Part shown: positions 2,463 to 16,696 of the stretch, one piece after another
Layout of the letters: the number at the start of each line of letters is the position of its first letter
How positions within the stretch are numbered: position 1 is the stretch's first letter
From: a virus
Taxonomy: Duplodnaviria; Caudoviricetes
Direction: 5' to 3' (one strand)
DNA: 64,000 nucleotides
Virus record (IMG/VR): IMGVR_UViG_3300021387_001758
Coordinates: 14,388 to 78,387 of that record
Made by a program: the position numbers and the translations under genes
Notes under the pieces: model-generated
The model's database searches: none
Seen by the model: the letters and a program-made list of their open reading frames with translations, nothing else
Told to the model about the DNA's origin: nothing

Positions 2463-2543
2463 ATATCTAATCTATGAATACGCTCGGCTTCGATTTGGTT
2501 TGTGGAGAGGTGAAGCGAACGTTAATTTTCCTCCTATAATATA

Positions 2544-2572
2544 AGTATAGCAGATTGCGGAGGAGAAGTCAA
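2544..2572 (-). promoter_or_regulatory. sigmaA-type promoter for the leftward operon
   Basis: TTGACT-N17-TATACT on the minus strand. Confidence 0.75.
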
Positions 2573-3287
2573 ATTTTAGAAGGCATAGGTTGAAAAAAAT
2601 ATCTTGTGGGGATAATAGGTTCAGATTTTTGTTTCGTGGAGATAATGTAGGGGCCGTTTTTCTCTAACGCTTTCCAAAACCTTCCTTTTCCTAAAATAAC
2701 CCCGGCCCTTCGAGCGATTGACTTTGTTAAATTTTTAACAACCTCTTCATCAATTCTCACTCAATTTTTCCGCAAGTTACTGTCGCCCAAAAGAACATAT
2801 GTTCTTTTTTCTATTGTCAAAAAATTTTTAGAATTTCGAAAGAATTCCTAAAAGGGGCCGGTCATTTTTTATTCACCCCTCTTCAATAAAAACCACCCCT
2901 CTTTTAGTCGAACAAAGGAGATCCTATTCTGCGGGCCAGGGTCGCGAAAAAGAACATATGTTCTTTTATTTAGTCCGGACTTTGTTAAATTTTTAACAAA
3001 GTCGTAGTCCGGACTTTGTTAAATTTTTAACAGGTGATCGTCTTATCTTTGGGACGTTTTAGTCCGGCCTTTGTTAAAAATTTAACAAAGTCCCGCGCGA
3101 GTTGGGGGGCCAAACACTTTAGCGCATTAAAGTAGTAAAGCGAACCTCTTCATTTTGTATTGTGTATACAGTATACAAGGACAAAAAAATAAATTAAAAA
3201 GATAATAAAAAAATAATAAAAAGGGGTTGACAAGTTATAGTATCCATGCTATTATATATATGTAAGAAAGAGAGAGGAGAAAAGGAA

Positions 3288-3698
3288 ATGACAAAGGCTT
3301 ACTACTTCGATATGGACGGCGTGCTCGCAAACTTCCATAAGGCATATAAAGAGGATAGAATGGTTGCTCTTAAGAGAGATAAGATGGCGAACCTTGAACC
3401 GTTCGAAGCAAACGTGAAACTCGTTCGCAACCTTATCGCACATAACGAAGTAGTATATGTACTCACTAAGGCAGCCAACGAAGAGGCGATGGAAGGCAAG
3501 ATTGAATGGCTTGCAAAGTACGTTCCTGAGATGGATAAAGAACACTTCATTTGCATCGTAGGTCATGGTAAGAAAGTTGACTTCATTCGTGAAGATGGCG
3601 TACTCGTTGATGATGATATGAAGAACCTTAAGCCGTGGGCAAAGGAAGGACACGAAGTATACTACGTAGAAGAAAAGGGAATGGAAGTAGTATTCTAA
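3288..3698 (+). CDS. HAD-superfamily phosphatase, 5'(3')-deoxyribonucleotidase-like
   Basis: YFDMDGVLANF motif I and LVDDD motif IV; start moved to the RBS-preceded ATG. Confidence 0.75.
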   Translation: MTKAYYFDMDGVLANFHKAYKEDRMVALKRDKMANLEPFEANVKLVRNLIAHNEVVYVLTKAANEEAMEGKIEWLAKYVPEMDKEHFICIVGHGKKVDFIREDGVLVDDDMKNLKPWAKEGHEVYYVEEKGMEVVF

Positions 3699-3873
3699 AG
3701 ATAGAAAGAGGGTAGATAAAAGGTTTACCCTCTTCATTTATAGATAGAAAATAGATAGATAAATAGACAGTGAAAAAAGTTTAACTAATTTGTAAAAAGG
3801 GGTTGACAGTACCTCTTCATTGTGGTATATTATAGTTAAGGAAAGGGAAGATAATTGAAAGGAAGGTAAACAA

Positions 3874-4050
3874 ATGAGGAATATAAACACTGAAAACATT
3901 ATTATAGCAATTACAATAATTGCGGCAATTATCGGAACAATCATTGGTATTATTGCAATCGTAAACGGACAGATAGTAGACAGTGAAACAGTTAGCCCCG
4001 CCAACCCAGCAAGTCCCGTTCATCAGTTAATGAAGAGTGTAATGTATTAA
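3874..4050 (+). CDS. Small membrane protein (58 aa)
   Basis: Manual ORF MRNINTENIIIAITIIAAIIGTIIGIIAIV..., RBS GGAAGG, own promoter and terminator. Confidence 0.65.
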   Translation: MRNINTENIIIAITIIAAIIGTIIGIIAIVNGQIVDSETVSPANPASPVHQLMKSVMY

Positions 4051-4308
4051 AGAAGTCGAAAGACTTCTTTTCATTTACCAAGGGACGAACATACGTTCGC
4101 ACCAAGCGAACATATGTTCGTCTACTGCGGGCGGCCGCGCGCACTTTAGCACGTTAAAGCATTAAAGCATTAGTATCGAGTTTGTTTGTTAATTAACAAA
4201 CGACATATTTATACATTGAAATGAATATTTATTTTTTTAATTTGAGGGTTGACAAATATATTCAGTTGTGGTATATTATAATTGACGAAAGGAAAGGAGA
4301 AAACACAA

Positions 4309-5052
4309 ATGACAAAACTAATATTCGATACTGAGACTACTGGACTGGATAAGCCGTTCTGTTACAATGTGGGCTATATCATTGTTAATGATGAGGGTAT
4401 GGTAGAGGTAAAGAAAGAGTATGTATGCGAGCAGGTATGGCATAATCCAATGCTATTTACTACTGCATACTATGCGAACAAAAGACCAATCTATGTTAAC
4501 AGAATGAGAGCAAGACAGATAACAATGAAGAAATTCGGTTATATCTGTCAAGAGATGATTAGAGATATTGAGCGCTATAATGTTACAATGGCTTTTGCTT
4601 TCAATAGCGACTTTGACGAGAAAGTGTTCGACTTCAATTGTGAATGGTTCAAATGTAATAATCCTTTTGATAATGTGGAAATTAAGGATATTAGAGGTTT
4701 CGTTCATCACTTCTTAATTGATAACGAGTTTAAAGCATTTTGCGAAGAACACGAACTGTTTACAGAATGTGGTAACTATTCCACCACAGCCGAAACAATG
4801 TATAGATATATAACTGATGATAATACTTTTGAGGAAGAGCACACGGCGTTAAGTGATAGCATTATTGAGTGGGAAGTATTGAAGAAATGTATTGAAAGGG
4901 GCGCTGATACTACAGAGAATTATAAAGCGTATCGCTCAATTAAAAGAGATACCGAAAAGGTATTAACAATTGATAATAAAGGCGATATATATACAATTCC
5001 TTGTAAAGAGTATAAAGTTTATAAAAGCAAAAATAAAATTGTAATTAAATAA
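4309..5052 (+). CDS. DEDDh (DnaQ-like) 3'-5' exonuclease
   Basis: FDTETTG, AFNSDFD and HTALSD motifs. Confidence 0.8.
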   Translation: MTKLIFDTETTGLDKPFCYNVGYIIVNDEGMVEVKKEYVCEQVWHNPMLFTTAYYANKRPIYVNRMRARQITMKKFGYICQEMIRDIERYNVTMAFAFNSDFDEKVFDFNCEWFKCNNPFDNVEIKDIRGFVHHFLIDNEFKAFCEEHELFTECGNYSTTAETMYRYITDDNTFEEEHTALSDSIIEWEVLKKCIERGADTTENYKAYRSIKRDTEKVLTIDNKGDIYTIPCKEYKVYKSKNKIVIK

Positions 5053-5148
5053 AAAAGTTTTGAAAAAGGGGTTGACAAACCCCTTTTTCCATGTTATTAT
5101 ATGTATGTAAGAAAGAGAGAGAGTTAAAAAAAGAAAGGAAGTAAAAAA

Positions 5149-5349
5149 ATGAAGTTCTTTAAGATGATGAAGGCGGCGGTAATGATTGGTAAAATGTTCA
5201 GCGATGAGGAAAAAATCAAAGAGTTAATCGACGAATACTTTGCCGAAACCGGATTAACAGTCACTGTTGAAGAGGTAAAGGCAAACGATTCAGAAAAAGT
5301 CGACTGGTTTGCGGAATGGGTTTCTGATAAGGTTATCGCACAACTTTAA
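5149..5349 (+). CDS. Hypothetical protein
   Basis: ORF with RBS and its own promoter. Confidence 0.65.
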   Translation: MKFFKMMKAAVMIGKMFSDEEKIKELIDEYFAETGLTVTVEEVKANDSEKVDWFAEWVSDKVIAQL

Positions 5350-5452
5350 AAAATAAAATAAAAAAATAAGCGAAAGGGGTTGACAAAACCCCTTTTGTAT
5401 TGTATTATAATTATAGAAAGAGAGAGGAAGAAAAGAAAGAGAGGTAAATAAA

Positions 5453-5611
5453 ATGACAAGAAAGATGGTAGAAGAAAGAATGAAATTCGTTGAAGAAAGA
5501 CTTTTCTATATCGCGATGGTAGATATGCCGACCGCAAGAGATAAAGAACTTGAAAGAGAATTTGAACACGAACTCAAAGGACTTAAAGAACAGATGAAGG
5601 CGTTCGGTTGA
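5453..5611 (+). CDS. Hypothetical protein (52 aa)
   Basis: Manual ORF MTRKMVEERMKF..., RBS GAGG. Confidence 0.6.
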   Translation: MTRKMVEERMKFVEERLFYIAMVDMPTARDKELEREFEHELKGLKEQMKAFG

Positions 5612-5841
5612 CGGACGCTTTTTTATGTCAACCAAAAGAACATATGTTCGTCCTGGCGCGGGCGCGTCCACTTTAGCACACTAAAGCGTTAAAGTGTAGA
5701 TCTTTCGGGCGCGCTTGTTAAAAATTTAACAAAGTTCCTCTTCAAAAAATTTTAAATTTTTTAAAATAAATACTTGACAAATAAATATATTTTATATATA
5801 ATATATATAGAAAGAGAAAGGTAAAAGAAAGGAAAATAAAA

Positions 5842-6285
5842 ATGACTAAAGCAATTTACTTCGATATGGATGGAACAATCGCTAACCTTTACGGAGTTGA
5901 AAATTGGTTAGATATGCTTATCAATGGAGACGAAACACCATACAGAGTGGCGAAACCGATGATAAAAATGAATGTACTTGCAAGGTACTTAAACAAGTTA
6001 CAGAGACATGGTTATATAATCGGAATTGTTAGTTGGTTGTCTAAAGGTGGAAACACAGAATATAATAAAAAAGTAACAGAAACAAAAATCAAATGGTTGC
6101 ATACTCACTTGAAAAGTGTTGAATGGAACGAAATAAAAATCGTTGAATACGGAACACCTAAAGAAACGATTGTAAACTATCCAAAAGGTATTCTGTTCGA
6201 TGATGAAAAACAGAATAGAAAAAATTGGAAAGGTAAAGCATATAAAGAAAATCAGATTATGGAAGTGTTGAAAGCGATTGCATAA
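5842..6285 (+). CDS. HAD-superfamily phosphatase (paralog of 3288-3698)
   Basis: YFDMDGTIANL and ILFDDE motifs. Confidence 0.75.
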   Translation: MTKAIYFDMDGTIANLYGVENWLDMLINGDETPYRVAKPMIKMNVLARYLNKLQRHGYIIGIVSWLSKGGNTEYNKKVTETKIKWLHTHLKSVEWNEIKIVEYGTPKETIVNYPKGILFDDEKQNRKNWKGKAYKENQIMEVLKAIA

Positions 6286-6370
6286 AATCGCTTTCAACCT
6301 TAAAAAAGGTATTGACAAGTTAAAAATTATATGCTATAATAAAAGCAGATAAAGGAAAGGGGAAAAGAAA

Positions 6371-6664
6371 ATGACACAGAGTATTATGCAGTTGGCGGAA
6401 TTATTAGACGAGTGGAATATTCCTTATGAATTAACTGACGATGTATGCGGAAACGAAAATAATCAGTTATGGTATCCTAACTATAAACATAATATTTGTG
6501 ATGTAATTTGTCACGAATACAGTTACGGCGGAAAAGATGGCTTACTTGAAATAATGGGTTTAGTCCCTGAAGAGGTCGGCGATGATGTAGAAGGGTATTT
6601 AACAGTTGCGGAAGTATTCCACAGAATTCTGCAGGACTATTGCGAAAATAAAGTAAAAAATTAA
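6371..6664 (+). CDS. Hypothetical protein
   Basis: ORF with RBS and promoter. Confidence 0.65.
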   Translation: MTQSIMQLAELLDEWNIPYELTDDVCGNENNQLWYPNYKHNICDVICHEYSYGGKDGLLEIMGLVPEEVGDDVEGYLTVAEVFHRILQDYCENKVKN

Positions 6665-6755
6665 AAAGTTTTTTTCTAAAAAGGGTTGACAAACCCTTTT
6701 TTTCATGTTATATTATATATGTAAGAAAGAGAGAGATAAAAGAAAGGAAAAGAAA

Positions 6756-6929
6756 ATGGCTTACGTAGAAATGTTCGATTATGTGCTTTCTGTAGAACAG
6801 TATGAACGCGAACGCGCGCAGTACCACGAAGAATGGTTAGCGATGGATGATTGGGACCGTTCATGGTATGATGATGAAGAGGAATTCATCGAAGACCGTT
6901 TCCATTCCGCTTGCTATCCGGATGACTAA
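6756..6929 (+). CDS. Small acidic hypothetical protein
   Basis: MAYVEMF... after RBS; D/E-rich. Confidence 0.6.
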   Translation: MAYVEMFDYVLSVEQYERERAQYHEEWLAMDDWDRSWYDDEEEFIEDRFHSACYPDD

Positions 6930-7227
6930 AGAAAAGAAAAGTAAGCCGCAAGGCTTATTTTTTTCTATCCATCAAAAGAACATATGTTCGGGCGCGGCCG
7001 GCCGCACTTTAGCGCATTAAAGTAATAAAGTGCGCGACTTTCGCCGTCGATTGTTAAATTTTTAACAATTGATCCTATATATATATTATAATTCTCTTCC
7101 CATTATATCATACCATACAAGAGAGATAATGTCAAGGGAAAAATTAAAAAAAATTTGTTAAATTTTCCCTTGACAGATTAAAAAACTCATGCTATAATAA
7201 AGACACAAAAGGAAAGGAGAGTAAAAA

Positions 7228-7464
7228 ATGAAAGCATTTGTTACGAAAGCAAACTCGGATTATTGGTACAAAATTAAAGAATTTGACACGATGGAAGATA
7301 TTGCAAAATTTATGAAAGAGGTTGAGTGCGGATTAATTATTGAAGAAAATGATTATACTGACGATGTACTTTTTGAATTTTGGGACGGAATGAAACAGGA
7401 AGACATTCCGATTATTAAAGAATGTGCTTTACATATCACTATTTACAATGATTATGTAGAATAA
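7228..7464 (+). CDS. Hypothetical protein
   Basis: ORF with GGAG RBS and promoter. Confidence 0.65.
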   Translation: MKAFVTKANSDYWYKIKEFDTMEDIAKFMKEVECGLIIEENDYTDDVLFEFWDGMKQEDIPIIKECALHITIYNDYVE

Positions 7465-7678
7465 AAATTCTGATAAAGAGAAAAGAGTTAGTCTTTACTA
7501 ACTCTTTTCTTTTGCGCGTCCCTCTTCAAAAAAAAACTTGACAAAATAAAAAAAATATGATATAATATATATAGAAAATAAAAAAGAAAAGAAAATTTGA
7601 AAAAAAATTAGAAAAAGGGTTGACAAACAAAATTTGAGTGGTATAATAATAGTAGAAAAAGAGAAAGGAGAAAAGAAA

Positions 7679-8035
7679 ATGGCTGTTAGTAGAAAAGTAG
7701 AAAGAGAACTTTTGAGAGAAGAGTATTTGAACAAACTGATTGAGTACTTTAAAGCCGATGAAGATGTTTTGAGAGTGAAAAGTAACGAAATCGCATTTCC
7801 TGTAGTTGGTTGTAACGATAGTGAGGATTTTATCGTAATTACAGTAAAAGTGCCTACGGGTGCAAACAAAGGTACAGAGCCTTACGATGGTTACGAACTT
7901 GCCGAAGAATACGAAATGAAGTTGAAAGAGAAAGAACAGAAAAAGAAAGAAAAGGCAATCGCAAAAGAAAAGAAAATCAAGCGTGACGAAGAAGTCAGAC
8001 GCAAGAAAAAGGAAATCGCCGAAAAAGGAAAATAA
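7679..8035 (+). CDS. MAVSRKVERE-family protein with lysine-rich C-terminal tail (paralog of 13361-13720)
   Basis: Clear sequence similarity to 13361-13720 (VLRVKSNEIAFPVVGC, KVPTGANKG.EPYDGYE.AEEYEMKLK). Confidence 0.75.
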   Translation: MAVSRKVERELLREEYLNKLIEYFKADEDVLRVKSNEIAFPVVGCNDSEDFIVITVKVPTGANKGTEPYDGYELAEEYEMKLKEKEQKKKEKAIAKEKKIKRDEEVRRKKKEIAEKGK

Positions 8036-8123
8036 AAAAAATAAAAAATAAAAGAGAAAAGGGGTTGACAAAATCCCTTTTTTCATATATAATATAATTG
8101 TAAAGAGAAAGGGGAAAGAAAAA

Positions 8124-8306
8124 ATGAAAAAGAAATACAGACTGAATAAAGTAAAATTTATCCGTTTTATCTGCTTTACAATTATGCTTTTAATCATCGG
8201 TTGGTTCATGGTTTCATACATTGAAATTCTTTGTAAGAATATCACAGAAAATCCGACTTACAGCGACTGGAATTTTATCTTTGTTGCACAAAAACTTTTG
8301 AAATAA
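8124..8306 (+). CDS. Small membrane protein
   Basis: Hydrophobic segment FICFTIMLLIIGWFMVSYI. Confidence 0.6.
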   Translation: MKKKYRLNKVKFIRFICFTIMLLIIGWFMVSYIEILCKNITENPTYSDWNFIFVAQKLLK

Positions 8307-9159
8307 TCACCTTTTACCTCCTTTTTTACAATATATGGAAAAGGTCACCACTGAGTGGTGACTTTTTCCGCTCTTCAAAAAGAACATATGTTCGCCTCCG
8401 GCGCCGGACCGGAGATTGTTAAAAAATTAACAATTTCGGCACCGCGCACTTTAACGCTTTAACGTGGTAAAGTGTACGCAGACGGGCGCGCCCGCTTTAG
8501 CGCGCTAAAGTGGTAAAGGATTGTACTAAATAAAAAACATTAAAAAAGGTATTGACATTTAGGGCGGGCGGGTGTATACTATAATTGTTCCAAGGGAGGG
8601 ACAAACGAAAATAAAAAAAATAAAAAAAGTTTGAAAAATCCCTTGACAAATCAAAGCCAATGTGCTAATATATACTTGAGGGTAGGAGAGTTAAGGGTTT
8701 ACCTCACTACAAAGTAGCAAGCAGTCGCAAGTACAAGCACTACCGAAAAAACCCGAAAAAAGTTTAAAAAAAGTGTTGACAAACTAAAGCAAATGTGCTA
8801 ATATATAATCAAGGAAAGGGAGATACTTCTGAGACTGTTCCCCAATACCGAAAGGCAAGAGAACTGTGAGCCAAATAAAATTTGTAGCCGCATAGGAAGT
8901 ATCACCCGAAATCCTAAAAAAATCTAAAAAAGGTATTGACAAACTTGAAAAAGTATGTTAATATATAAATGTCAAGAGGGTCGTGGAGAGGTCGCCCCAC
9001 GAAGTAGCGTAAGAGGATAACACACAGACCTAAATCGATAAGTGAAAACCTCTTGACAATATTACAAAAGTGTGATAATATATAATCACAGAGAGGGAGA
9101 CAGGAACTCCCAAAGGTAACTAAAAAGGGTCACGACCAACGTGAGAAAGTAGGTACACT

Positions 9160-9501
9160 ATGACTAACAGAGAATTCTTCGAAATGGTAATGAATGGTAA
9201 CGTAACTGACGAGGTTAAGGCTCACGCTGAAATGTCGATTGAGAAACTCGATGCGCGCAACGCAAAGAGAGCATCTCAGCCGTCAAAGAGAGCGATTGAG
9301 AACGAACCTATCAAGGCTAACATCAGAGAGTATCTCGCTGATAAAGAGCCGACTACGGCAAGCGAAATTGCCAAGGGACTTGAACTGACTGTTCAGAAAG
9401 TTTCCGCACTGTGTAGACAGATGGTAAATGATGGTATTCTCACCGTTACCGAGGTTAAGGTAAAGGGAAAGGGCAATCAGAAAGCGTATGCTATCGGTTG
9501 A
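9160..9501 (+). CDS. Winged-helix DNA-binding protein, paralog 1 of 3
   Basis: TASEIAKGLELTVQKVSALCRQMV wHTH-like segment; similar to 12643 and 14729. Confidence 0.7.
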   Translation: MTNREFFEMVMNGNVTDEVKAHAEMSIEKLDARNAKRASQPSKRAIENEPIKANIREYLADKEPTTASEIAKGLELTVQKVSALCRQMVNDGILTVTEVKVKGKGNQKAYAIG

Positions 9502-9794
9502 CAATAATTCCCAGCCGGGAAGAGAGAGAAAATCTCTCTCTTCCTTTTTTTACCATTCCGCGGTTAACAATAACAGGTATTATGTCAACCGCGACAATAA
9601 TAATATTATTGTCAACCGGCCAAAAATCTTTATCCACAGATTGTTAAATTTTTAACAGGGCGGCCGGCCGCGCGCACTTTAGCGAGTTAAAGCGTTAAAG
9701 GATCGAGCCAAAAAAATAATTGGAAAAAAGTACTTGACAAGTCCTCTTCATTATGGTAATATATACTTGTAAGAAGGAGAAAGGAGAAATAAAA

Positions 9795-9986
9795 ATGACT
9801 TGTACTGAATGGAATAAAGGGATTAAGTTCCTCACTACTGCAGAGGTAGGCGCGTGGGTTGACCACGAAGACCGCACAGTTATTATCGAGGAGATGTGCG
9901 GAGGCAGATATTTACTCCTCGACCGCAAAGAAGTTTGCGGGGTGACCGATTCGGTCATCGAGGCGATGTCATTCCTTAGGGGATAG
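9795..9986 (+). CDS. Hypothetical protein
   Basis: ORF after GGAG RBS. Confidence 0.55.
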   Translation: MTCTEWNKGIKFLTTAEVGAWVDHEDRTVIIEEMCGGRYLLLDRKEVCGVTDSVIEAMSFLRG

Positions 9987-10140
9987 GCAACCGCCTTTTT
10001 TATTAACCAATGAACGAACGTTCGCGCGGCCGGCCGCGCGCACTTTAGTCTGCTAAAGCATTAAAGGATCGAAAAAAAGTACTTGACAAATCCTCTTCAT
10101 TATGGTAATATATGGGTAGAAAGAGAAAAGGAGATAAAAA

Positions 10141-10314
10141 ATGAAAGTGATTTTTGCAGGGTATCTTATTGTAGTCTTTTCCCTTGGCGTTCATGGGATT
10201 TTTTATGATAAAACCGATAAAAACGGAAATTTTAAAGTAAATTGGCCTTTTGGTTTATTTCTTTTCTTGTTTGGACTTACTCCCATAATTGCGAAAATAT
10301 GTAATTTAATTTGA
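10141..10314 (+). CDS. Small two-TM membrane protein
   Basis: Manual ORF MKVIFAGYLIVVFSLGVHGIF..., GGAG RBS. Confidence 0.55.
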   Translation: MKVIFAGYLIVVFSLGVHGIFYDKTDKNGNFKVNWPFGLFLFLFGLTPIIAKICNLI

Positions 10315-10383
10315 AATTGCACTTGACAAGTCCTCTTCATTGTGATATACTTATTATAGAAAGAAAGGAAAGGAGAAAGGAAA

Positions 10384-10551
10384 ATGAAAACGTACTTATT
10401 TGAAGATTTTGAAACGGGTGAGAGATTCTTTGTTGAAGAGGAAACACCGGAAAAGGCAATTGCAGTTGCCGATGAATATTTTGACCACGCTATTTTCATG
10501 TGGGAAGTATCCGAAGAATGGGCGGACTTGGCAGGATTTGACACTTACTAA
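10384..10551 (+). CDS. Small acidic hypothetical protein
   Basis: Manual ORF MKTYLFEDFETGE..., RBS. Confidence 0.6.
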   Translation: MKTYLFEDFETGERFFVEEETPEKAIAVADEYFDHAIFMWEVSEEWADLAGFDTY

Positions 10552-10655
10552 AAAAAATTAAAAAAGTTTTGAAAAAGGGTTGACAAGTTCAACCCTTTAT
10601 GGTAATATATAATCGTAAGGAAGAGAGAGTTAAAAAAAAGAGAAAGGAAAAAGAA

Positions 10656-10847
10656 ATGATGTACTTAGTAATTTTTATCGAAGAATACGTTGGCTACCAC
10701 TTTGACGAACACACCAAGTTTTTCAAGGATGAACAGTCGGCAAAGGAATATTGCCAGAAATTAAACGCCGAATTTGCCGAAGAAAATCATTGTTCGGTTG
10801 AAGATTTAGGTGACTACTACACGGTTGAGTGGGTTAAGGAAGGTTAG
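10656..10847 (+). CDS. Hypothetical protein
   Basis: ORF after RBS. Confidence 0.6.
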   Translation: MMYLVIFIEEYVGYHFDEHTKFFKDEQSAKEYCQKLNAEFAEENHCSVEDLGDYYTVEWVKEG

Positions 10848-11085
10848 AAAGGACTAACCCACCAAAAAGAGGGCAACCTCTTTTTTTTTGTTCTGCCGGC
10901 GAACATACGTTCTCGGCGGCCGCCCTCGCGCACTTTAGCGTAGTAAAGTGGTAAAGTGGACGGATCCGGCGCCCGCGCATAAACATACATGAAAATGTAT
11001 AAATATTTTTTTCAAAAAAGTATTGACAAAATTGATTATATATATTATACTATAATGGGGAAGTATGCCCAGGCGTAAAAGTGCG

Positions 11086-11109
11086 AATTTTCTGAATTGT
11101 CAGAAAATT
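11086..11109. promoter_or_regulatory. Tandem overlapping CodY boxes
   Basis: AATTTTCTGAATTGTCAGAAAATT = two AATTTTCWGAAAATT matches overlapping by 6 bp, 20 bp upstream of a -35. Confidence 0.7.
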
Positions 11110-11199
11110 AAAACTTTTTATTTTGGGGTTGACAAATTCCGTTCTATCCCTTATAATAGTAACTGTAAGGTAAAGAGAAAAGGAAAGGAACGAAACAAC

Positions 11200-11865
11200 A
11201 TGAAAATCGACAAAAGAAAAAACTATTATCTGACAATCGACACGGAAACGGCAAACGGATTTGATGACCCGATTGTATACGATTTAGGCGGATGTATACA
11301 TGACAAGAAAGGCAACGTAATGGAAACATTTTCCTTTATCATTTACGAAACCTTTTGCGGAATGAAAGATTTAATGCAGAGTGCCTACTACTCCGAAAAA
11401 ATTCCGATGTATCAGAAAGAAATTGACGAGGGAAAAAGAAAAATCGTAACCTATACCACCGCCAAAAGATATATCAATGCACTTTGTAAAAAGTACAATG
11501 TCAAGGCAATAATCGCCCACAATATGAGATTTGATTATAGGGCAACGACACGGACGCAAAGATATATCACGAAATCAAAAGTCAGATTTTTTCTTCCGTA
11601 TGGCGTTGAATTGTGGGATACAATGAAAATGGCAAATGATACAATTTGCAAACAGAAAACATATATCAAGTGGTGTAAAGAAAACGGATATATGACAAAG
11701 AACGGACAAGTCAGAAAAACGGCGGAAATCCTTTACAAGTACATTTCAGGCAACTGGGATTTTGTGGAAAATCATACAGGACTTGAAGATGTGCTAATCG
11801 AAAAGGAAATCTTTTCCAAGTGTATGGCACAACATAAGCCGATGAGAAAATTATGTTTTGACTAA
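11200..11865 (+). CDS. DEDDh 3'-5' exonuclease (paralog of 4309-5052)
   Basis: IDTETANG, AHNMRFD and HTGLEDV motifs. Confidence 0.8.
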   Translation: MKIDKRKNYYLTIDTETANGFDDPIVYDLGGCIHDKKGNVMETFSFIIYETFCGMKDLMQSAYYSEKIPMYQKEIDEGKRKIVTYTTAKRYINALCKKYNVKAIIAHNMRFDYRATTRTQRYITKSKVRFFLPYGVELWDTMKMANDTICKQKTYIKWCKENGYMTKNGQVRKTAEILYKYISGNWDFVENHTGLEDVLIEKEIFSKCMAQHKPMRKLCFD

Positions 11866-11948
11866 AAAAATTCTAAAAAAGGGGTTGACAAAGTCAGCCC
11901 CTTTTGGTATTATAATTATAGAAAGAGAGAGAAAGAAAGGTAAGAAAA

Positions 11949-12101
11949 ATGTATATGGTATGGGTATTTGATGAAGATTTATATGATGATGTGTTGATTT
12001 TTGAAGGGTCATATGAACAGTGCCAAGAGGTAGTAGCCGAAGGGCGCGCAATCGGTGAGGACCCGTATATCGTAGCCAGCGAGGACTACTACGAGGACTA
12101 A
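11949..12101 (+). CDS. Small acidic hypothetical protein
   Basis: Manual ORF MYMVWVFDEDLYDD... Confidence 0.55.
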   Translation: MYMVWVFDEDLYDDVLIFEGSYEQCQEVVAEGRAIGEDPYIVASEDYYED

Positions 12102-12642
12102 GCCGAAAAGGATAAGCCGAAAGGCTTATCTTTTTTTTTGTTCTTAAAAAGAACATATGTTCGCGGCGGGCCGGTGGCGCGCACTTTAGTCTGCTAAAGC
12201 GTTAAAGCGATCCGCGCCGCTTGTTAAAAATTTAACAATCGATCCGGTCCGCCGATTGTTAAAAAATTAACAAAGATTTTTTTCAAAAAGGGGTTGACTT
12301 TTTCCCTATGTGGGTATATACTATAATTGTCAAGGGGAGAGGAAGCCGAGGGACTCACGAGGGCGCGCACTCCACGAGAGAAGGAAAAAAATTCTCGAAA
12401 AAAAATAAAAAAACCCCTTGACACTATCACAAAAATGTGATAATATATAATTGACCCAAGGGGAGAGGTTAAAAACGAAAGTAGTAAAATATTACAACCC
12501 CGCGGGTGAAAAAAAGTTTTAAAAAGTACTTGACAAGATAGACAAAAGGTGCTATACTTAAGTCAAGGAAAGGGGAAAGACAGGAACTTTCCCAAAGGTA
12601 AATCTAAAAAGGGTTGTGACCAACACAAGAAAGAGGTGTCTT

Positions 12643-12987
12643 ATGACAAAGAGAGAATTCATGGAAATGGTTATCGCTGAGGTTACTAACGCAGAACTCA
12701 AGGCTTTTGCCCAGTCTGAAATCGAAAAGATGGACGCGCGCAACGCTAAGAGAGCCGAAACGCCTTCCAAGACGGCAATCGCTAACGAGCCTATCAAGGC
12801 ACAGATTGTCGAATTCCTGAAGGGTTGCGAGGAAAAGGTTACCGCTTCCGCTATCGCTTCCGAGGTTGAAATCTCAACGCAGAAGGCTTCCGCCCTTTGC
12901 AGACAGTTGGTAGCAGATGGTGTTCTGACCGTCGCAGATGTGAAGGTTAAGGGCAAGGGTACACAGAAGGGTTACGAAATCGCGTAG
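12643..12987 (+). CDS. Winged-helix DNA-binding protein, paralog 2 of 3
   Basis: TASAIASEVEISTQKASALCRQLV. Confidence 0.7.
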   Translation: MTKREFMEMVIAEVTNAELKAFAQSEIEKMDARNAKRAETPSKTAIANEPIKAQIVEFLKGCEEKVTASAIASEVEISTQKASALCRQLVADGVLTVADVKVKGKGTQKGYEIA

Positions 12988-13360
12988 CCTAACCCAAGCC
13001 GAGGAAGGGAAAAATTTTCCCTTCCTTTTTTTACCATTCAGACGAACATATGTTCGTGGCAGAAATTGGAAGAACATATGTTCGCGAACATACGTTCGCG
13101 GTCGATCTGGTCCGGACTTTGTTAAAAATTTAACAATCGGGGCCGGCGCCGCGCACTTTAACACACTAAAGTGCTAAAGTCTTTCGATCCGGCGCGCGGT
13201 TTACATAATATTATTATCGTTATGCGGTGCGGTTTACATAATATTATTATCGTTACGAAAAAATCCGAAAAAAATTTTTGAAAAAGGGTTGACAAATTGT
13301 GTTCTATCCCTTATACTATATATAGAAAGTAAGAGTTGAGGTTAAGGAAAGGAGTTAACT

Positions 13361-13720
13361 ATGGCAGTATCGCGCAAGGTAGAAAGAGAAATCATCCGCA
13401 AACAGTATCTCGAAATGGTAGCCGAATTCCTCAAGGAAAAGGGTGAAGATGTTCTCCGTGTTAAGTCCAACGAAATCGCTTTTCCAGTCGTTGGATGTGA
13501 AGATAGCGAAGATTTTCTCGTTATCACTTTCAAGGTGCCGACTGGCGCCAATAAGGGAATGGAACCGTATGACGGTTACGAAATGGCGGAAGAGTACGAA
13601 ATGAAACTCAAAGCCAAAGAGGAAAAGGCGAAAGCCAACGCCGAAAAAAAGGCGAAGAAAATCGCTCGCGACAAAGAAATCAGAGCGAAAAAGGCAGAAA
13701 TTGCCAACAAGGGAAAATAG
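13361..13720 (+). CDS. MAVSRKVERE-family protein (paralog of 7679-8035)
   Basis: Sequence similarity; GGAG RBS. Confidence 0.75.
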   Translation: MAVSRKVEREIIRKQYLEMVAEFLKEKGEDVLRVKSNEIAFPVVGCEDSEDFLVITFKVPTGANKGMEPYDGYEMAEEYEMKLKAKEEKAKANAEKKAKKIARDKEIRAKKAEIANKGK

Positions 13721-14035
13721 CCATTTTCTTCCAGAGGGAAGAGGGTCGGTTGACCCTCTTCTTTTATTGTAAACCGCGCAACAATAATAATATTATGTCA
13801 ACCACGAACATATGTTCGCGGCAGCCGAATTTCAAAGGCGAACATATGTTCGCGGCCGGCCGTAGTTGTCCACTTTAACACACTAAAGCGATAAAGTGCG
13901 CGCCGGCGGGCGTCCACTTTAACACGTTAAAGTAGTGAAGTGCAGAAATCCGGGCCGCTCGTTAAATTTTTAACAAAGTCAAGTTTTCTGGCAACTATTC
14001 CGAAAATTAGTTTTTTAGGAATAGTTACAACCTCT

Positions 14036-14083
14036 TCACTATATATAGTATATTTCCCTCTTCAATACCACTATATATAGTAT
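14036..14083. promoter_or_regulatory. Tandem NrdR-box pair
   Basis: CACTATATATAGTA at 14037 and 14069 (32-bp period). Confidence 0.65.
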
Positions 14084-14219
14084 GTTTTGGTCGTGCCAAC
14101 TATTCCGAAAAAATGCTTTATCGGCATAGTTATACCGCCGAATTGTCAGAATATTCCAACTATTCAGAATTGTCAGAATATTCCAGCTTTTCGCTTTAGC
14201 GTACTAAAGCGTTAAAGCG

Positions 14220-14465
14220 TTGTCAAATTTTAAAATTTTTCCAGGAGCTGCGAAAGAGCTGCGATCGAAAATTTTTTTCACGGCCGTGGGGAGCTGCGAT
14301 TTGACTTTTTTATTTCGCATCCAGGAGCTGCAAAAAATTTGACTTTAAAAGTCAAATTTCTTTTATAAAATTCAAGGAGCTGCGCTTTGGAAATTTGACA
14401 AAAAAAGTCAAATTTTTAAGGAGCTGCAACTTAGAGCTTTTGGGAATTTGACTTTAAAAGTCAAA
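14220..14465. repeat. Alternating GGAGCTGC direct repeats and TTTGAC-N7-GTCAAA palindromes
   Basis: GGAGCTGC at 14244, 14290, 14324, 14376, 14420; palindromes at 14338, 14394, 14447 (also 15195). Confidence 0.9.
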
Positions 14466-14728
14466 TTTTCAGCGCGCACCCGCACGAACCTCTTCAAATT
14501 AAAATTTGAAAAAGCTCTAAAAATCTTTTATAATATATATAGAAAGTGAGGGAAGAAAAAAATAAAAAGCTCCTCCGCTGAAGAGGAAAGGGCAAAAGAA
14601 ATTTTGACAAATCCTCAAAAATCTTATATAATATATATGTAAGATGAAGAGAGGGAAAAGTAACTTCCTTCTAAAGTAAAAACCATAACGTAACTGGGTG
14701 GTGACCTACACCAGAAAGAGAGTACAAA

Positions 14729-15070
14729 ATGACTAAGAGAGAAATGATGAACCTGATCGCTAACGGAACTATCAATGAAGAGGTTATGGCTTGGGCTGTC
14801 GGCCAGATCGAGAAGATGGATGCGGCTAACGAGAAGCGCAGAAACTCCGTTTCTAAGAAAGCGCTTGAGAACGCTCCGATCATCGACAGAATCGTGAACG
14901 AGATCCTCGGTGAGGAACCGATGACTGCTACTGATGTAGCTGGAGTTCTCGGAGTTTCTGTCCAGAAAGCATCTGCACTCCTGCGCACTGCCGTGAAGGA
15001 AGGTAGAGCTGCTGCCGAGGACGTGAAAGTTAAGGGCAAAGGCACTCAGAAGGGGTACACTCTCGCGTAG
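14729..15070 (+). CDS. Winged-helix DNA-binding protein, paralog 3 of 3
   Basis: TATDVAGVLGVSVQKASALLRTAV. Confidence 0.7.
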   Translation: MTKREMMNLIANGTINEEVMAWAVGQIEKMDAANEKRRNSVSKKALENAPIIDRIVNEILGEEPMTATDVAGVLGVSVQKASALLRTAVKEGRAAAEDVKVKGKGTQKGYTLA

Positions 15071-15119
15071 TGCCGCGCGAGCTGTAGTAAACGGCTGAAG
15101 AGGGGAAATCACCCCTCTT

Positions 15120-16290
15120 CTTTTTATTTTATACGTATACTTAGACGTATTAGAATACGTTTGAGTATTATTTTTTTAACTTTTAATAGGAAAATTTGAC
15201 TTTTTAAGTCAAATTATTAATAATTTTAAACTTTTTTAAAGAAAAAATTTGATTTTAGTCGATGTGTGCGGCACCCACCTATTTCTGACCATACCAACTT
15301 CTTTCATAATCCTCCAACTCCTTTCAAAACCCCTCAACTTCTTTCAAAAACACGCAACTTCTTTCATTTTCCCCTTCTGAACTACCCCCTTCTCCGAGAT
15401 CTACTGCGCAGGACCACCGCCCTCCCATGCCCCGTGGCAGTCTACCTCCCTATAACGTATTACTAAACTTCTACTTATACGTAAACTTATACGTAACAAC
15501 CCGTTACCAGCTGGGTTATCCTTAGTCGTATACGTATACTTATACGTAGACTTATACGTTTTACCGTTACCCTTTTCCTACCTTTTTCGTTACCCTTTTC
15601 CTTATCCGTTTACTTATCCTTTTTTGTTACCTTTTCCGGTACATTTCCCGTTATCCTTTTTCGTAAACCCTTTCCCGGTACCTTAAACATATACGTATAC
15701 GTATACGTTTATCGTATTCGTTTTCGTAGAGGTAGAAAATAAAAAAGCTCCTTCCGCTAGAGGAAGAAGCTAAGTTAATCGTAGTAGTTGACCGTTACGG
15801 CTCCCTTGTTTTTCCCCACCGTTGGTGGTAAAACCTGCGGGAGCTTCACAACTAGTAGAAGGTTTTTAGATTTGAGGTACCTTAATATTATACGTTTATA
15901 CGTATAAGTATATGTATACGTATATTTATATTTTTTCCTTATACGTATAATAAGTGATTTTAGTTAAAAGAAGCTACAATTTTTTTCGTAAAACTGCGCG
16001 AGTCCGAAATTTTTCTGCAAAATTTTTTGGAAAATTTCTGCAAAATTTTTTGGAAAATTTTTTGGAAAATTTCTGACGCTGGAAATTTTTTGGAAAAAAT
16101 TTTTTTGGAAAATTTTTTGGAAAATTTTAAGCCAGGGAAATTTTTTGGAAAATTATTTTCCCAAAATTTTTCCCAAAATTATTGATATACGTAGACTGCG
16201 CGCTGTCAAAAACCTACTGATTTTCCCAAAATTTTTTGGAGAATTTTTTGGAAAATTTTTGATTGCGCGCAGTCGAAATAAAAAAGGAAG
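15120..16290. repeat. Non-coding repeat island between convergent gene blocks
   Basis: Blocks of CAACTYCTTTCA, TATACGTA, GTTACCCTTTT-like and TTTGGAAAATTT repeats; central hairpins at about 15735-15850. Confidence 0.85.
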
Positions 16291-16304
16291 CTACAAAGCT
16301 TCCC

Positions 16305-16487
16305 TTAAATCAACCCGTATTTAACTACTGAATCTTCAAAGAGTTTCATAAACCGGTAGAACTTTCCGATCTCACTTTCATTAAAAATAAGTTCAACCTG
16401 TCTTGTCTCCTCTGGAGAAGTAGCAGTCGCGCTAATTGATAAATCATAACTCCCATCGGGAATTTCTATTGGTACTAAAATTTTCAA
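16305..16487 (-). CDS. Hypothetical protein
   Basis: ORF in coupled leftward operon. Confidence 0.55.
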   Translation of the reverse strand: MKILVPIEIPDGSYDLSISATATSPEETRQVELIFNESEIGKFYRFMKLFEDSVVKYGLI

Positions 16488-16696
16488 TTTAACAATCTCC
16501 TTTCTTCTTCCTCATCTTCCATTGATTCATCATATACTATTATATAAGAGGAAATAATTACATATCCGTCATCTTCATAATAATTATGAATATAAGCTGC
16601 GGCACTTGGTAAATCTCCTGCGCCGACTACTCCTCGCGCGTTATAAATTTTTCCCTCTTCTGACAGCATAGTTAGATCATATGCAAAGTATATCAT
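16484..16696 (-). CDS. Hypothetical protein
   Basis: ORF in coupled leftward operon. Confidence 0.55.
   Translation of the reverse strand: MIYFAYDLTMLSEEGKIYNARGVVGAGDLPSAAAYIHNYYEDDGYVIISSYIIVYDESMEDEEEERRLLN

Follow-up and report, generated by a model that had tools for sequence, protein, structure and literature searches.

The DNA analysed here is a 64,000-nucleotide window covering bases 14388-78387 of the 78,387-bp IMG/VR record IMGVR_UViG_3300021387_001758, and the subject of this report is an array of short sites in the non-coding gaps of its early gene block, which are predicted to be operators of several host repressors. The record comes from a large gut or rumen phage, a tailed one whose tail module is of the siphovirus type and whose biology is of the Firmicute type. 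CheckV rates the record as 66% complete, from which a full genome size of approximately 119 kb is estimated. Among its genes are gyrase A and gyrase B, an ATP-dependent ligase, a Sipho_tail protein, an SH3/C39-type lysin, and 21 tRNA genes. The terminase is nearest to those of Geobacillus virus E3, an Alicyclobacillus phage, 134-140 kb Enterococcus phages, and SPbeta-like phages, and a megablast of 20 kb against cultured phages returned tRNA matches only.

The block that holds the array (2720-14220) measures about 11.5 kb, with a mean GC content of 37%, and contains several paralog pairs: two NT5C-type deoxyribonucleotidases, two exonuclease-like proteins, two winged-helix proteins, and two copies of a 119-amino-acid protein with a lysine/glutamate-rich (K/E) tail. 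The winged-helix proteins, two or three in number, are weakly MarR-like. Three patterns recur between these genes and are named after the regulators whose operators they resemble, namely GAAC-N4-GTTC (LexA type), TTGTTAA-N4-TTAACAA (Rex type), and CTTTA-N6-TAAAG-N3-TAAAG (HisR type). The operator-type sites all lie in non-coding gaps and are grouped as eleven cassettes, in which the prevailing order is LexA, HisR, Rex, with variation in both order and content. Each of the ten internal cassettes stands behind a hairpin followed by a T-run and ends 17-110 bp 5' of the following -35 element, which agrees with the placement behind terminators and away from promoters described in the initial annotation; no site of the array overlaps a -35 or -10 element or the start of transcription. 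The spacers between sites are 17-24 nt long and 71-95% GC, and neither their length nor their sequence is conserved.

All three patterns are strongly enriched over shuffled sequence and confined to the block. GAAC-N4-GTTC matches 16 times in the 64 kb, 15 of them within 2793-13851, where shuffles average 0.70 and never exceed 5; eleven of these cores are the perfect 12-mer GAACATATGTTC, and four extend to the full 14-mer CGAAC-N4-GTTCG. The Rex-type pattern, allowing up to 2 mismatches, is matched 13 times, always within 2724-13976 (1.46 expected from shuffles), by nine perfect 18-mers, three sites with one mismatch, and one site (4182) that better fits a zero-spacer variant. The HisR-type pattern is found at 14 places between 3117 and 14194, where shuffles predict 0.17. 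These counts reproduce the approximately 15, 13, and 14 copies first reported from inspection of the letters, the last of them as an unassigned TAAAG motif. In the other 66 kb of the record, three GAAC-N4-GTTC matches occur, and there is no Rex- or HisR-type site in the rest of the 78-kb record. The features of the block are as follows (window positions; a strand is given for the early genes only).

3227..13720, plus strand: early gene block, about 20 small genes, with a near-consensus TTGACA-17-TATAAT promoter for each (about 35 in total)
2720..3226: cassette 1, the left island, between divergent promoters
2724-2741, 2982-2999, 3016-3033 and 3071-3088: Rex-type sites of the left island (pattern match)
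2793-2804 and 2952-2963: LexA-type sites of the left island (pattern match)
3115-3140: HisR-type site of the left island (pattern match)
2742, 2878 and 3145: copies of CCTCTTCA in the left island (pattern match)
4051..4248: cassette 2, terminator, LexA-type 4087-4098 and 4108-4119, GC spacer, HisR-type 4142-4167
4186-4199: zero-spacer Rex-like palindrome of cassette 2 (pattern match)
5600..5773: cassette 3, terminator, LexA-type 5638-5649, GC spacer, HisR-type 5669-5694, Rex-type 5715-5732, CCTCTTCA at 5737
6940..7169: cassette 4, terminator, LexA-type 6978-6989, GC spacer, HisR-type 7005-7030, Rex-type 7051-7068
8340..8551: cassette 5, terminator, LexA-type 8382-8393, Rex-type 8416-8433, HisR-type 8449-8474 (inverted) and 8493-8518
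9517..9733: cassette 6, terminator, two copies of a motif of about 25 bp (9562-9620), Rex-type 9641-9658, HisR-type 9675-9700
9630: one copy of a perfect DnaA-box 9-mer in cassette 6 (pattern match)
9987..10082: cassette 7, LexA-type 10012-10023 (GAACGAACGTTC), GC palindrome spacer, HisR-type 10041-10066; ends 17 bp before the -35
10864..11128: cassette 8, terminator, LexA-type 10901-10912, HisR-type 10931-10956, promoter at 11023, overlapping CodY-like pair 11086-11109
12105..12293: cassette 9, terminator, LexA-type 12151-12162, HisR-type 12182-12207, Rex-type 12221-12238 and 12256-12273
13001..13288: cassette 10, terminator, three LexA-type sites (13044, 13072 and 13086, the last two 2 bp apart), Rex-type 13119-13136
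13154-13179 and 13198-13255: further sites of cassette 10, HisR-type and two copies of the motif of about 25 bp, respectively (pattern match)
13738..14220: right, promoter-poor island, terminator, motif of about 25 bp at 13769-13805, LexA-type 13806 and 13840
13871-13896, 13915-13940 and 14192-14217: HisR-type sites of the right island (pattern match)
13959-13976: Rex-type site of the right island, one mismatch
within 13738..14220: AACTATTCC inverted repeats of the right island
14036-14051 and 14068-14083: NrdR-type box pair CACTATATATAGTA, 16-bp spacer
14141 and 14168: two copies of AATTGTCAGAATATT, CodY-like, two mismatches each

Each of the principal modules can be compared with a published operator, and for LexA, clostridial Rex, and NrdR the matches proposed at the outset agree with the published consensus sequences. 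The LexA-type cores fit the Gram-positive LexA box CGAAC-N4-GTTCG, the consensus established in B. subtilis (PMC4551915), and are predicted operators on that basis; they are situated 5' of the -35 and behind terminators, and overlap no promoter that they might repress. In four metagenome-assembled genomes (MAGs) of candidate-host Clostridia, the boxes upstream of lexA are imperfect (GAACAACTGTTT, GAACAAAGGTTT, and AAAC-N4-GTTT variants). The Rex-type sites conform to the 18-bp palindrome TTGTTAA-N4-TTAACAA, in line with the Clostridiaceae Rex motif TTGTTAANNNNTTAACAA (PMC9600882; also PMC5886521), and the upstream regions of host rex genes gave no clear Rex site. NrdR binds two 16-bp boxes that are 15-16 bp apart (PMC12051234); the NrdR-type pair at 14036-14051 and 14068-14083 has the canonical 16-bp spacer, with two mismatches in each box to the idealised palindrome. 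No ribonucleotide reductase (RNR) gene was found in the record, and the pair sits in a gene-free island, not over an RNR promoter.

The TAAAG motif, judged by sequence, is the operator published for the TrpR-family histidine repressor HisR, and this assignment is new in the present analysis. The HisR consensus is cacTTTA-N6-TAAAgtg (cacTTTAnnnnnnTAAAgtg), and HisR of Ruminococcus gnavus binds its own operator in vitro in the presence of histidine (PMC9413887). All 14 copies in the phage fit the 20-bp palindrome, with CA before most of them and TG after some. When one genome per prokaryote species was scanned for the exact pattern, 82 occurrences were located at 80 loci, mostly in gut or rumen Clostridia MAGs, where many copies lie a few bases 3' of a TTGACA/TATAAT promoter, just after the -10 and before the ribosome-binding site. 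The genes downstream in these MAGs include hisZ (at least 7) and family-3 amino-acid-binding lipoproteins of 260-290 amino acids (about 27), and a TrpR-family protein of about 100-130 amino acids is encoded in all six HisR-motif MAGs that were examined. In the phage, as at the Clostridia hisZ and transporter promoters, a third TAAAG half-site follows 8 bp downstream. Such an extra half-site is consistent with tandem binding, which TrpR-family dimers are known to show.

The remaining assignments are less firm. The CodY-like doublets named in the initial annotation are present in the window with one or two mismatches to the CodY box AATTTTCWGAAAATT (one mismatch at 11095, two at 14141 and at 14168), none of them being perfect, so the CodY assignment is weak here; perfect CodY 15-mers, two to three in each, occur in four relatives of the phage. 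The ArgR reading of the ARG-like doublets had to be abandoned, as the TGAAT-N4-ATTCA core occurs zero times in the window, and the doublets are copies of another motif, about 25 bp long and with the core ATAATAATATTAT, at 9597, 13205, 13238, and 13784. Patterns for cre, Spo0A, CIRCE, CtsR, Fur, PerR, TnrA, PurR, and BirA yielded either nothing or a single chance-level match in the block. A further repeated motif, CCTCTTCA(T), has 20 copies in the window between 2742 and 15103, with 1.8 expected; it lies inside promoter spacers, between -35 and -10, at 3812, 9743, 10092, and 10332, with other copies just behind terminators, and is likely a true promoter-level control element. In two relatives, CCTCTTCATC stands directly 5' of LexA boxes and also in promoter spacers. 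The LexA-, Rex-, HisR-, and NrdR-type modules are very likely host-repressor operators in a non-canonical context, because they agree in sequence with their families but do not lie over a promoter of their own; host LexA, Rex, and HisR can with high probability be expected to occupy the sites of the array.

The array is far beyond chance, recurs in relatives, and tracks the host lineage. Among the IMG/VR contigs with the HisR motif, many are related to the phage at the protein level, their early proteins being 40-76% identical, and the conservation that was to be checked is borne out by complete relatives of 122-140 kb, in which HisR, LexA, and Rex sites are kept to one block of 5-12 kb while the mix of regulators differs. 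For instance, relative G013 has nine GAACATTTGTTC boxes together with HisR sites and is devoid of Rex sites; in G009, HisR sites accompany eight identical copies of the Rex site, and the block is free of LexA boxes; and G012 combines LexA with HisR sites. GC-rich spacers are found again in the relatives. Relative L037 holds an island of about 700 bp (40-720) with eight identical Rex sites and three HisR sites; about six copies of an additional perfect palindrome, GTTAGTTATAACTAAC, are also seen in it.

The Rex half-site is TTGTTAA in all of the Clostridia-phage relatives. The cultured, 138-kb Enterococcus phage H1 is a relative by virtue of a common terminase and a common exonuclease-like early protein, and it has five sites of the Bacilli type, TTGTGAA-N4-TTCACAA (PMC2883068), the TTGTTAA type not being found in it. 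Phage H1 also carries four CcpA cre sites, three of which are perfect TGTAAGCGCTTACA, and its Rex and cre sites all lie at 90.4-100.4 kb of the record, in non-coding DNA and mostly in two islands. These islands (L178, 380-1580 and 9790-10630) additionally contain many palindromes of the AAATAACA-N2-TGTTATTT type, several ARG-box-like TGAATA-N-TGTTCA sites, and one CodY-like site. Enterocloster phage PMBT24 (100 kb, 32% GC), used as a negative control, is without any of the sites. In five host-type Clostridia MAGs totalling 9.3 Mb, there are zero perfect Rex 18-mers and one perfect LexA 12-mer, which was discarded as a host operator since it falls inside a TrkH-like gene and is attributed to chance; at the level of sequence, the phage sites are consensus-grade and better than the host's own.

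The HisR motif also occurs on twelve contigs of about 11.5-14 kb from phi29-like small linear phages, which encode an upper collar connector, a major head protein, a DNA polymerase of the protein-primed type, and a packaging ATPase. These phages have inverted terminal repeats longer than 170 bp that begin with AAAGTA and carry the HisR operator approximately 40 nt from each end, where it is extended into a series of as many as about 8 TAAAG half-sites, one every 8 bp. No protein common to the phage described here and these HisR-motif phages was detected at E<1e-3.

On the sequence evidence, the array probably either soaks up host regulators or reads the state of the host through them. Sequestration of host repressors, that is, a DNA sponge, is the favoured reading, with a probability of roughly 0.4. 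The early-block gaps would thereby form a docking array for host LexA, Rex, HisR, and NrdR, and perhaps CodY and others, in which idealised operators of maximum affinity are parked in the stretch from each terminator to the promoter that follows, where they would be insulated from one another by GC-rich DNA. In a healthy, replete cell, the repressors would be in their DNA-binding forms: LexA uncleaved, Rex at low NADH, HisR with histidine, and NrdR with dATP and ATP. Upon phage entry, and increasingly with replication, they would be drawn from their few chromosomal operators onto the array, whereby the low-abundance regulons for histidine supply, ribonucleotide reductase, NAD+-regenerating fermentation, and SOS would be derepressed without the need for a phage protein. 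The placement in gaps would ensure that RNA polymerase neither displaces the bound proteins nor is blocked by them. Somewhat more tentative is the complete proposal of a protein-free, multiplexed sponge, made up of early gaps that would not be transcribed, which titrates LexA, Rex, HisR, and NrdR, as well as CcpA in the Enterococcus relatives, with an operator set retuned for each lineage. Occupation by host repressors is what the identity of the sites implies; less firmly, selection would appear to act on titration of the host pool rather than on a cis effect on phage DNA.

Sequestration is favoured because the sites lie off the core promoters, match the consensus perfectly, and are found in promoter-poor islands, and because doublets, triplets, and islands (in this phage, in L037, and in phage H1) go together with a variable distance to the promoter. 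Many high-affinity sites uncoupled from a regulated promoter, as expected of a sponge, are indeed present at the sequence level. HisR regulons are small, comprising the his operon and one or two transporters (PMC9413887), and, the HisR and NrdR regulons being small, the phage sites, among them 14 three-half-site HisR operators, would outnumber the host targets.

Several points weigh against sequestration. Repressors usually exceed their operators, and one genome copy may titrate little. A sponge that depends on replication leaves the location in the early block unexplained, and if host DNA were degraded early, as in T5, derepression of the host would be pointless; two deoxyribonucleotidase-like and two exonuclease-like early proteins make such destruction of host DNA possible. 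A comparison of NrdR boxes with phage-encoded RNR genes, which might have shown the boxes only where such a gene is lacking, gave a mixed picture: an anaerobic-type reductase gene, NrdD, is present in 8 of 10 relatives, and NrdR-like pairs occur only in this incomplete record and in G012, which has no NrdD and whose class I/II-like RNR match is interrupted by stop codons. In addition, six sister phages, no less closely related, are without LexA, Rex, and HisR sites and carry instead 15-19 copies of one 19-bp palindrome, which is TTAGACGT-N3-ACGTCTAA in four of them and TTAGATGT-N3-ACATCTAA in the other two. These palindromes also stand behind terminators, and most end about 9 bp (8-20 bp) 5' of the -35 of an early promoter, so that the same slot looks like a cis-regulatory design.

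The sister phages thus lend weight to a host-state sensor or insulator acting in cis, whereby the same repressors bind but selection would act through the phage's own DNA: in replete, undamaged cells, occupancy would gate early transcription by blocking read-through behind terminators or by modulating the next promoter, giving a different programme in starved, reduced, or damaged hosts. Such a sensor is a serious rival, somewhat less probable than the sponge. It has precedents in the Spo0A boxes of phi29 and Nf (PMC2731898), the CtrA sites of other phages (PMC9437464), and the control of GIL01 by LexA with gp7 (PMC4551915), the sites do lie directly after terminators and before promoters, and the candidate regulators all bind in one physiological state, which would allow several signals to be integrated. 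However, no site overlaps the promoter elements or the start of transcription, the places at which these repressors act in hosts, and host HisR sites lie just after the -10; the distance from site to -35 varies from 17 to 110 bp; triplets and islands of eight identical sites are more than a switch needs; and it is a different motif, CCTCTTCA, that fills the promoter spacers and looks like the promoter-level signal.

The sites could, by analogy with the first-step transfer of T5, serve as a landing pad on the DNA that enters first, with host proteins holding, ratcheting, pausing, or protecting the block. The outline resembles the left terminal repeat of T5, as about 11.5 kb of an estimated 119-kb genome is made up of small early genes, including deoxyribonucleotidase-like ones, followed by a repeat-rich end at 13738-16300, and a single Fur-like 19-mer lies inside T5 iss. 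Nevertheless, this is improbable: the block shows no sign of being a terminal repeat or of entering first, the terminase belongs with those of large Firmicute siphophages (Geobacillus E3, SPbeta-like) rather than with T5, the deoxyribonucleotidase has no detectable relation to T5 Dmp, and the sites occur throughout the block instead of just at its end. Binding of some or all of the palindromes by phage proteins, such as the winged-helix or K/E-tailed paralogs, would turn the likeness to host operators into mimicry or coincidence. The two or three weakly MarR-like winged-helix proteins and other small early proteins are candidates for such binders, relatives carry palindrome arrays to which no host regulator is assigned, and the one third of the genome (34%) outside the record may encode a binder, which also counts against the sponge. 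Yet four to six motifs are each the consensus of a different host regulator, the Rex half-site switches with the host lineage, and the HisR motif is common to unrelated 13-kb phi29-like phages with which no protein is detectably shared; six-frame searches of the 78-kb record at E values up to 1 gave no LexA, Rex, or TrpR DNA-binding domain, and the K/E-tailed paralog has no informative fold match. A phage-encoded binder is therefore considered distinctly improbable. Last, the cassettes might be selfish or merely duplicated repeats, similar to miniature inverted-repeat transposable elements, on which no protein docks; their common order of LexA, HisR, and Rex, their similar spacing, and the paralog-rich block, which demonstrates that duplication occurred, would be accounted for. 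As exactness is limited to the operator cores, with spacers that vary in sequence and length (17-24 nt), as order and content differ between cassettes, and as the cores equal the host consensus and change with the host, this is scarcely credible.

Other features of the block were noted alongside the array. Runs of strong promoters occur at 8552, 8643, 8776, 8936, and 9053 and at 12294, 12418, and 12530 (zones 8552-9160 and 12294-12640), each followed by 60-130 nt free of open reading frames and then by the two winged-helix genes; these stretches may be small RNAs or structured leaders, and an Rfam scan of window positions 2500-16500, which includes them, returned nothing relevant. Terminator-like hairpins at 5062-5089, 5370-5398, and 6678-6701 hold the TTGACA of the next promoter in their loop, forming fused terminator/promoter elements. 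The 119-amino-acid paralogs, at 7679-8035 and 13361-13720, are kept in relatives at 51-76% identity; the AlphaFold model of one (pLDDT, the predicted local distance difference test, 79) has a small domain of a helix and three strands with a long lysine/glutamate-rich C-terminal helix, and nothing in the PDB matched it in a Foldseek search at an E value under 0.05. The right edge of the array adjoins a repeat-rich, mostly non-coding zone (14220-16300) that holds GGAGCTGC repeats, four AATTTGAC-N6-GTCAAATT palindromes at 14336, 14392, 14445, and 15193, arrays of TATACGTA-type and GTTACCCTTTTCC-type units with a 12-bp period, CAACTTCTTTCA at a 20-bp period, and AAATTTTTTGGAAAAT arrays at 16003-16260. 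These repeats may be iterons or an origin, or additional docking sites. Among the relatives, one in-frame TAG or TGA is present in each of the NrdD genes of G009 and G006; recoding of TAG has been reported for the related phage phAss-1 (PMC10607447), and an alternative code may be in use in parts of this clade.

The array is real, strongly non-random, and conserved across a large clade of gut and rumen phages, and the identity of its sites is well supported; a function as sponge or sensor is proposed for it. Literature searches bear out the initial impression that no such array had been described: the searchable literature contains no multi-regulator operator array in a phage, only synthetic decoys and single-regulator phage cases, and such sites go unmentioned in the publication on the related phage phAss-1. 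If the sites are sponges, they would represent a new, protein-free mode of cell takeover; if they are sensors, a virulent phage would be integrating DNA-damage, redox, amino-acid, and nucleotide signals. In either case, the operator repertoire could provide a host-prediction signal for uncultured phages, and the arrays could supply maximum-affinity operators for the regulators of unculturable Clostridia. The cultured Enterococcus relatives with Rex and CcpA sites make the question experimentally accessible.

Among known systems, the Spo0A boxes of phi29 and Nf, with their parS-like sites (PMC2731898), are comparable in that several sites for a regulator encoded by the host, and not by the phage, stand on the DNA of a virulent Firmicute phage, which is thereby a direct reader of host physiology. 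They concern one regulator, lie over early promoters and origins, and have a demonstrated repressive effect, whereas the present phage has sites for at least four regulators, 42 consensus-grade predicted sites in all, none of which covers a core promoter. The CtrA sites of alphaproteobacterial phages, associated with "lytic deferment" (PMC9437464), likewise represent an enrichment of sites for a host global regulator recognised by comparative genomics, but they involve a single regulator, are promoter-associated, are proposed to time expression, and belong to another phage group and host phylum. The tectivirus GIL01 bears the same Gram-positive LexA box in its dinBoxes, which are bound by host LexA (PMC4551915); one or two boxes over promoter P1 control lysogeny there with the co-repressor gp7, in contrast to 15 boxes outside promoters in the present phage, in whose record lysogeny genes were not seen. 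Firmicute HisR operators (PMC9413887) share the 20-bp palindrome and the extra half-site 8 bp downstream, and differ in being one or a few per genome over the transcription start, as opposed to 14 in 11.5 kb placed upstream of, or far from, promoters. The first-step-transfer region of T5 (NC_005859 annotation, dmp, iss) is similar in its early block of about 10 kb, its small genes, its deoxyribonucleotidase function, and its terminal repeat-rich non-coding zone; no homology was detected between the deoxyribonucleotidases, and the terminase lineage is another one. Engineered decoy arrays and sponges in E. coli (PMC7826281, PMC7686491), together with titration theory (PMC8599769), differ from the phage array in that their sites are synthetic or chromosomal, and correspond to the mechanism proposed for it in that high-affinity repeats uncoupled from promoters titrate a regulator, whose targets are thereby derepressed.

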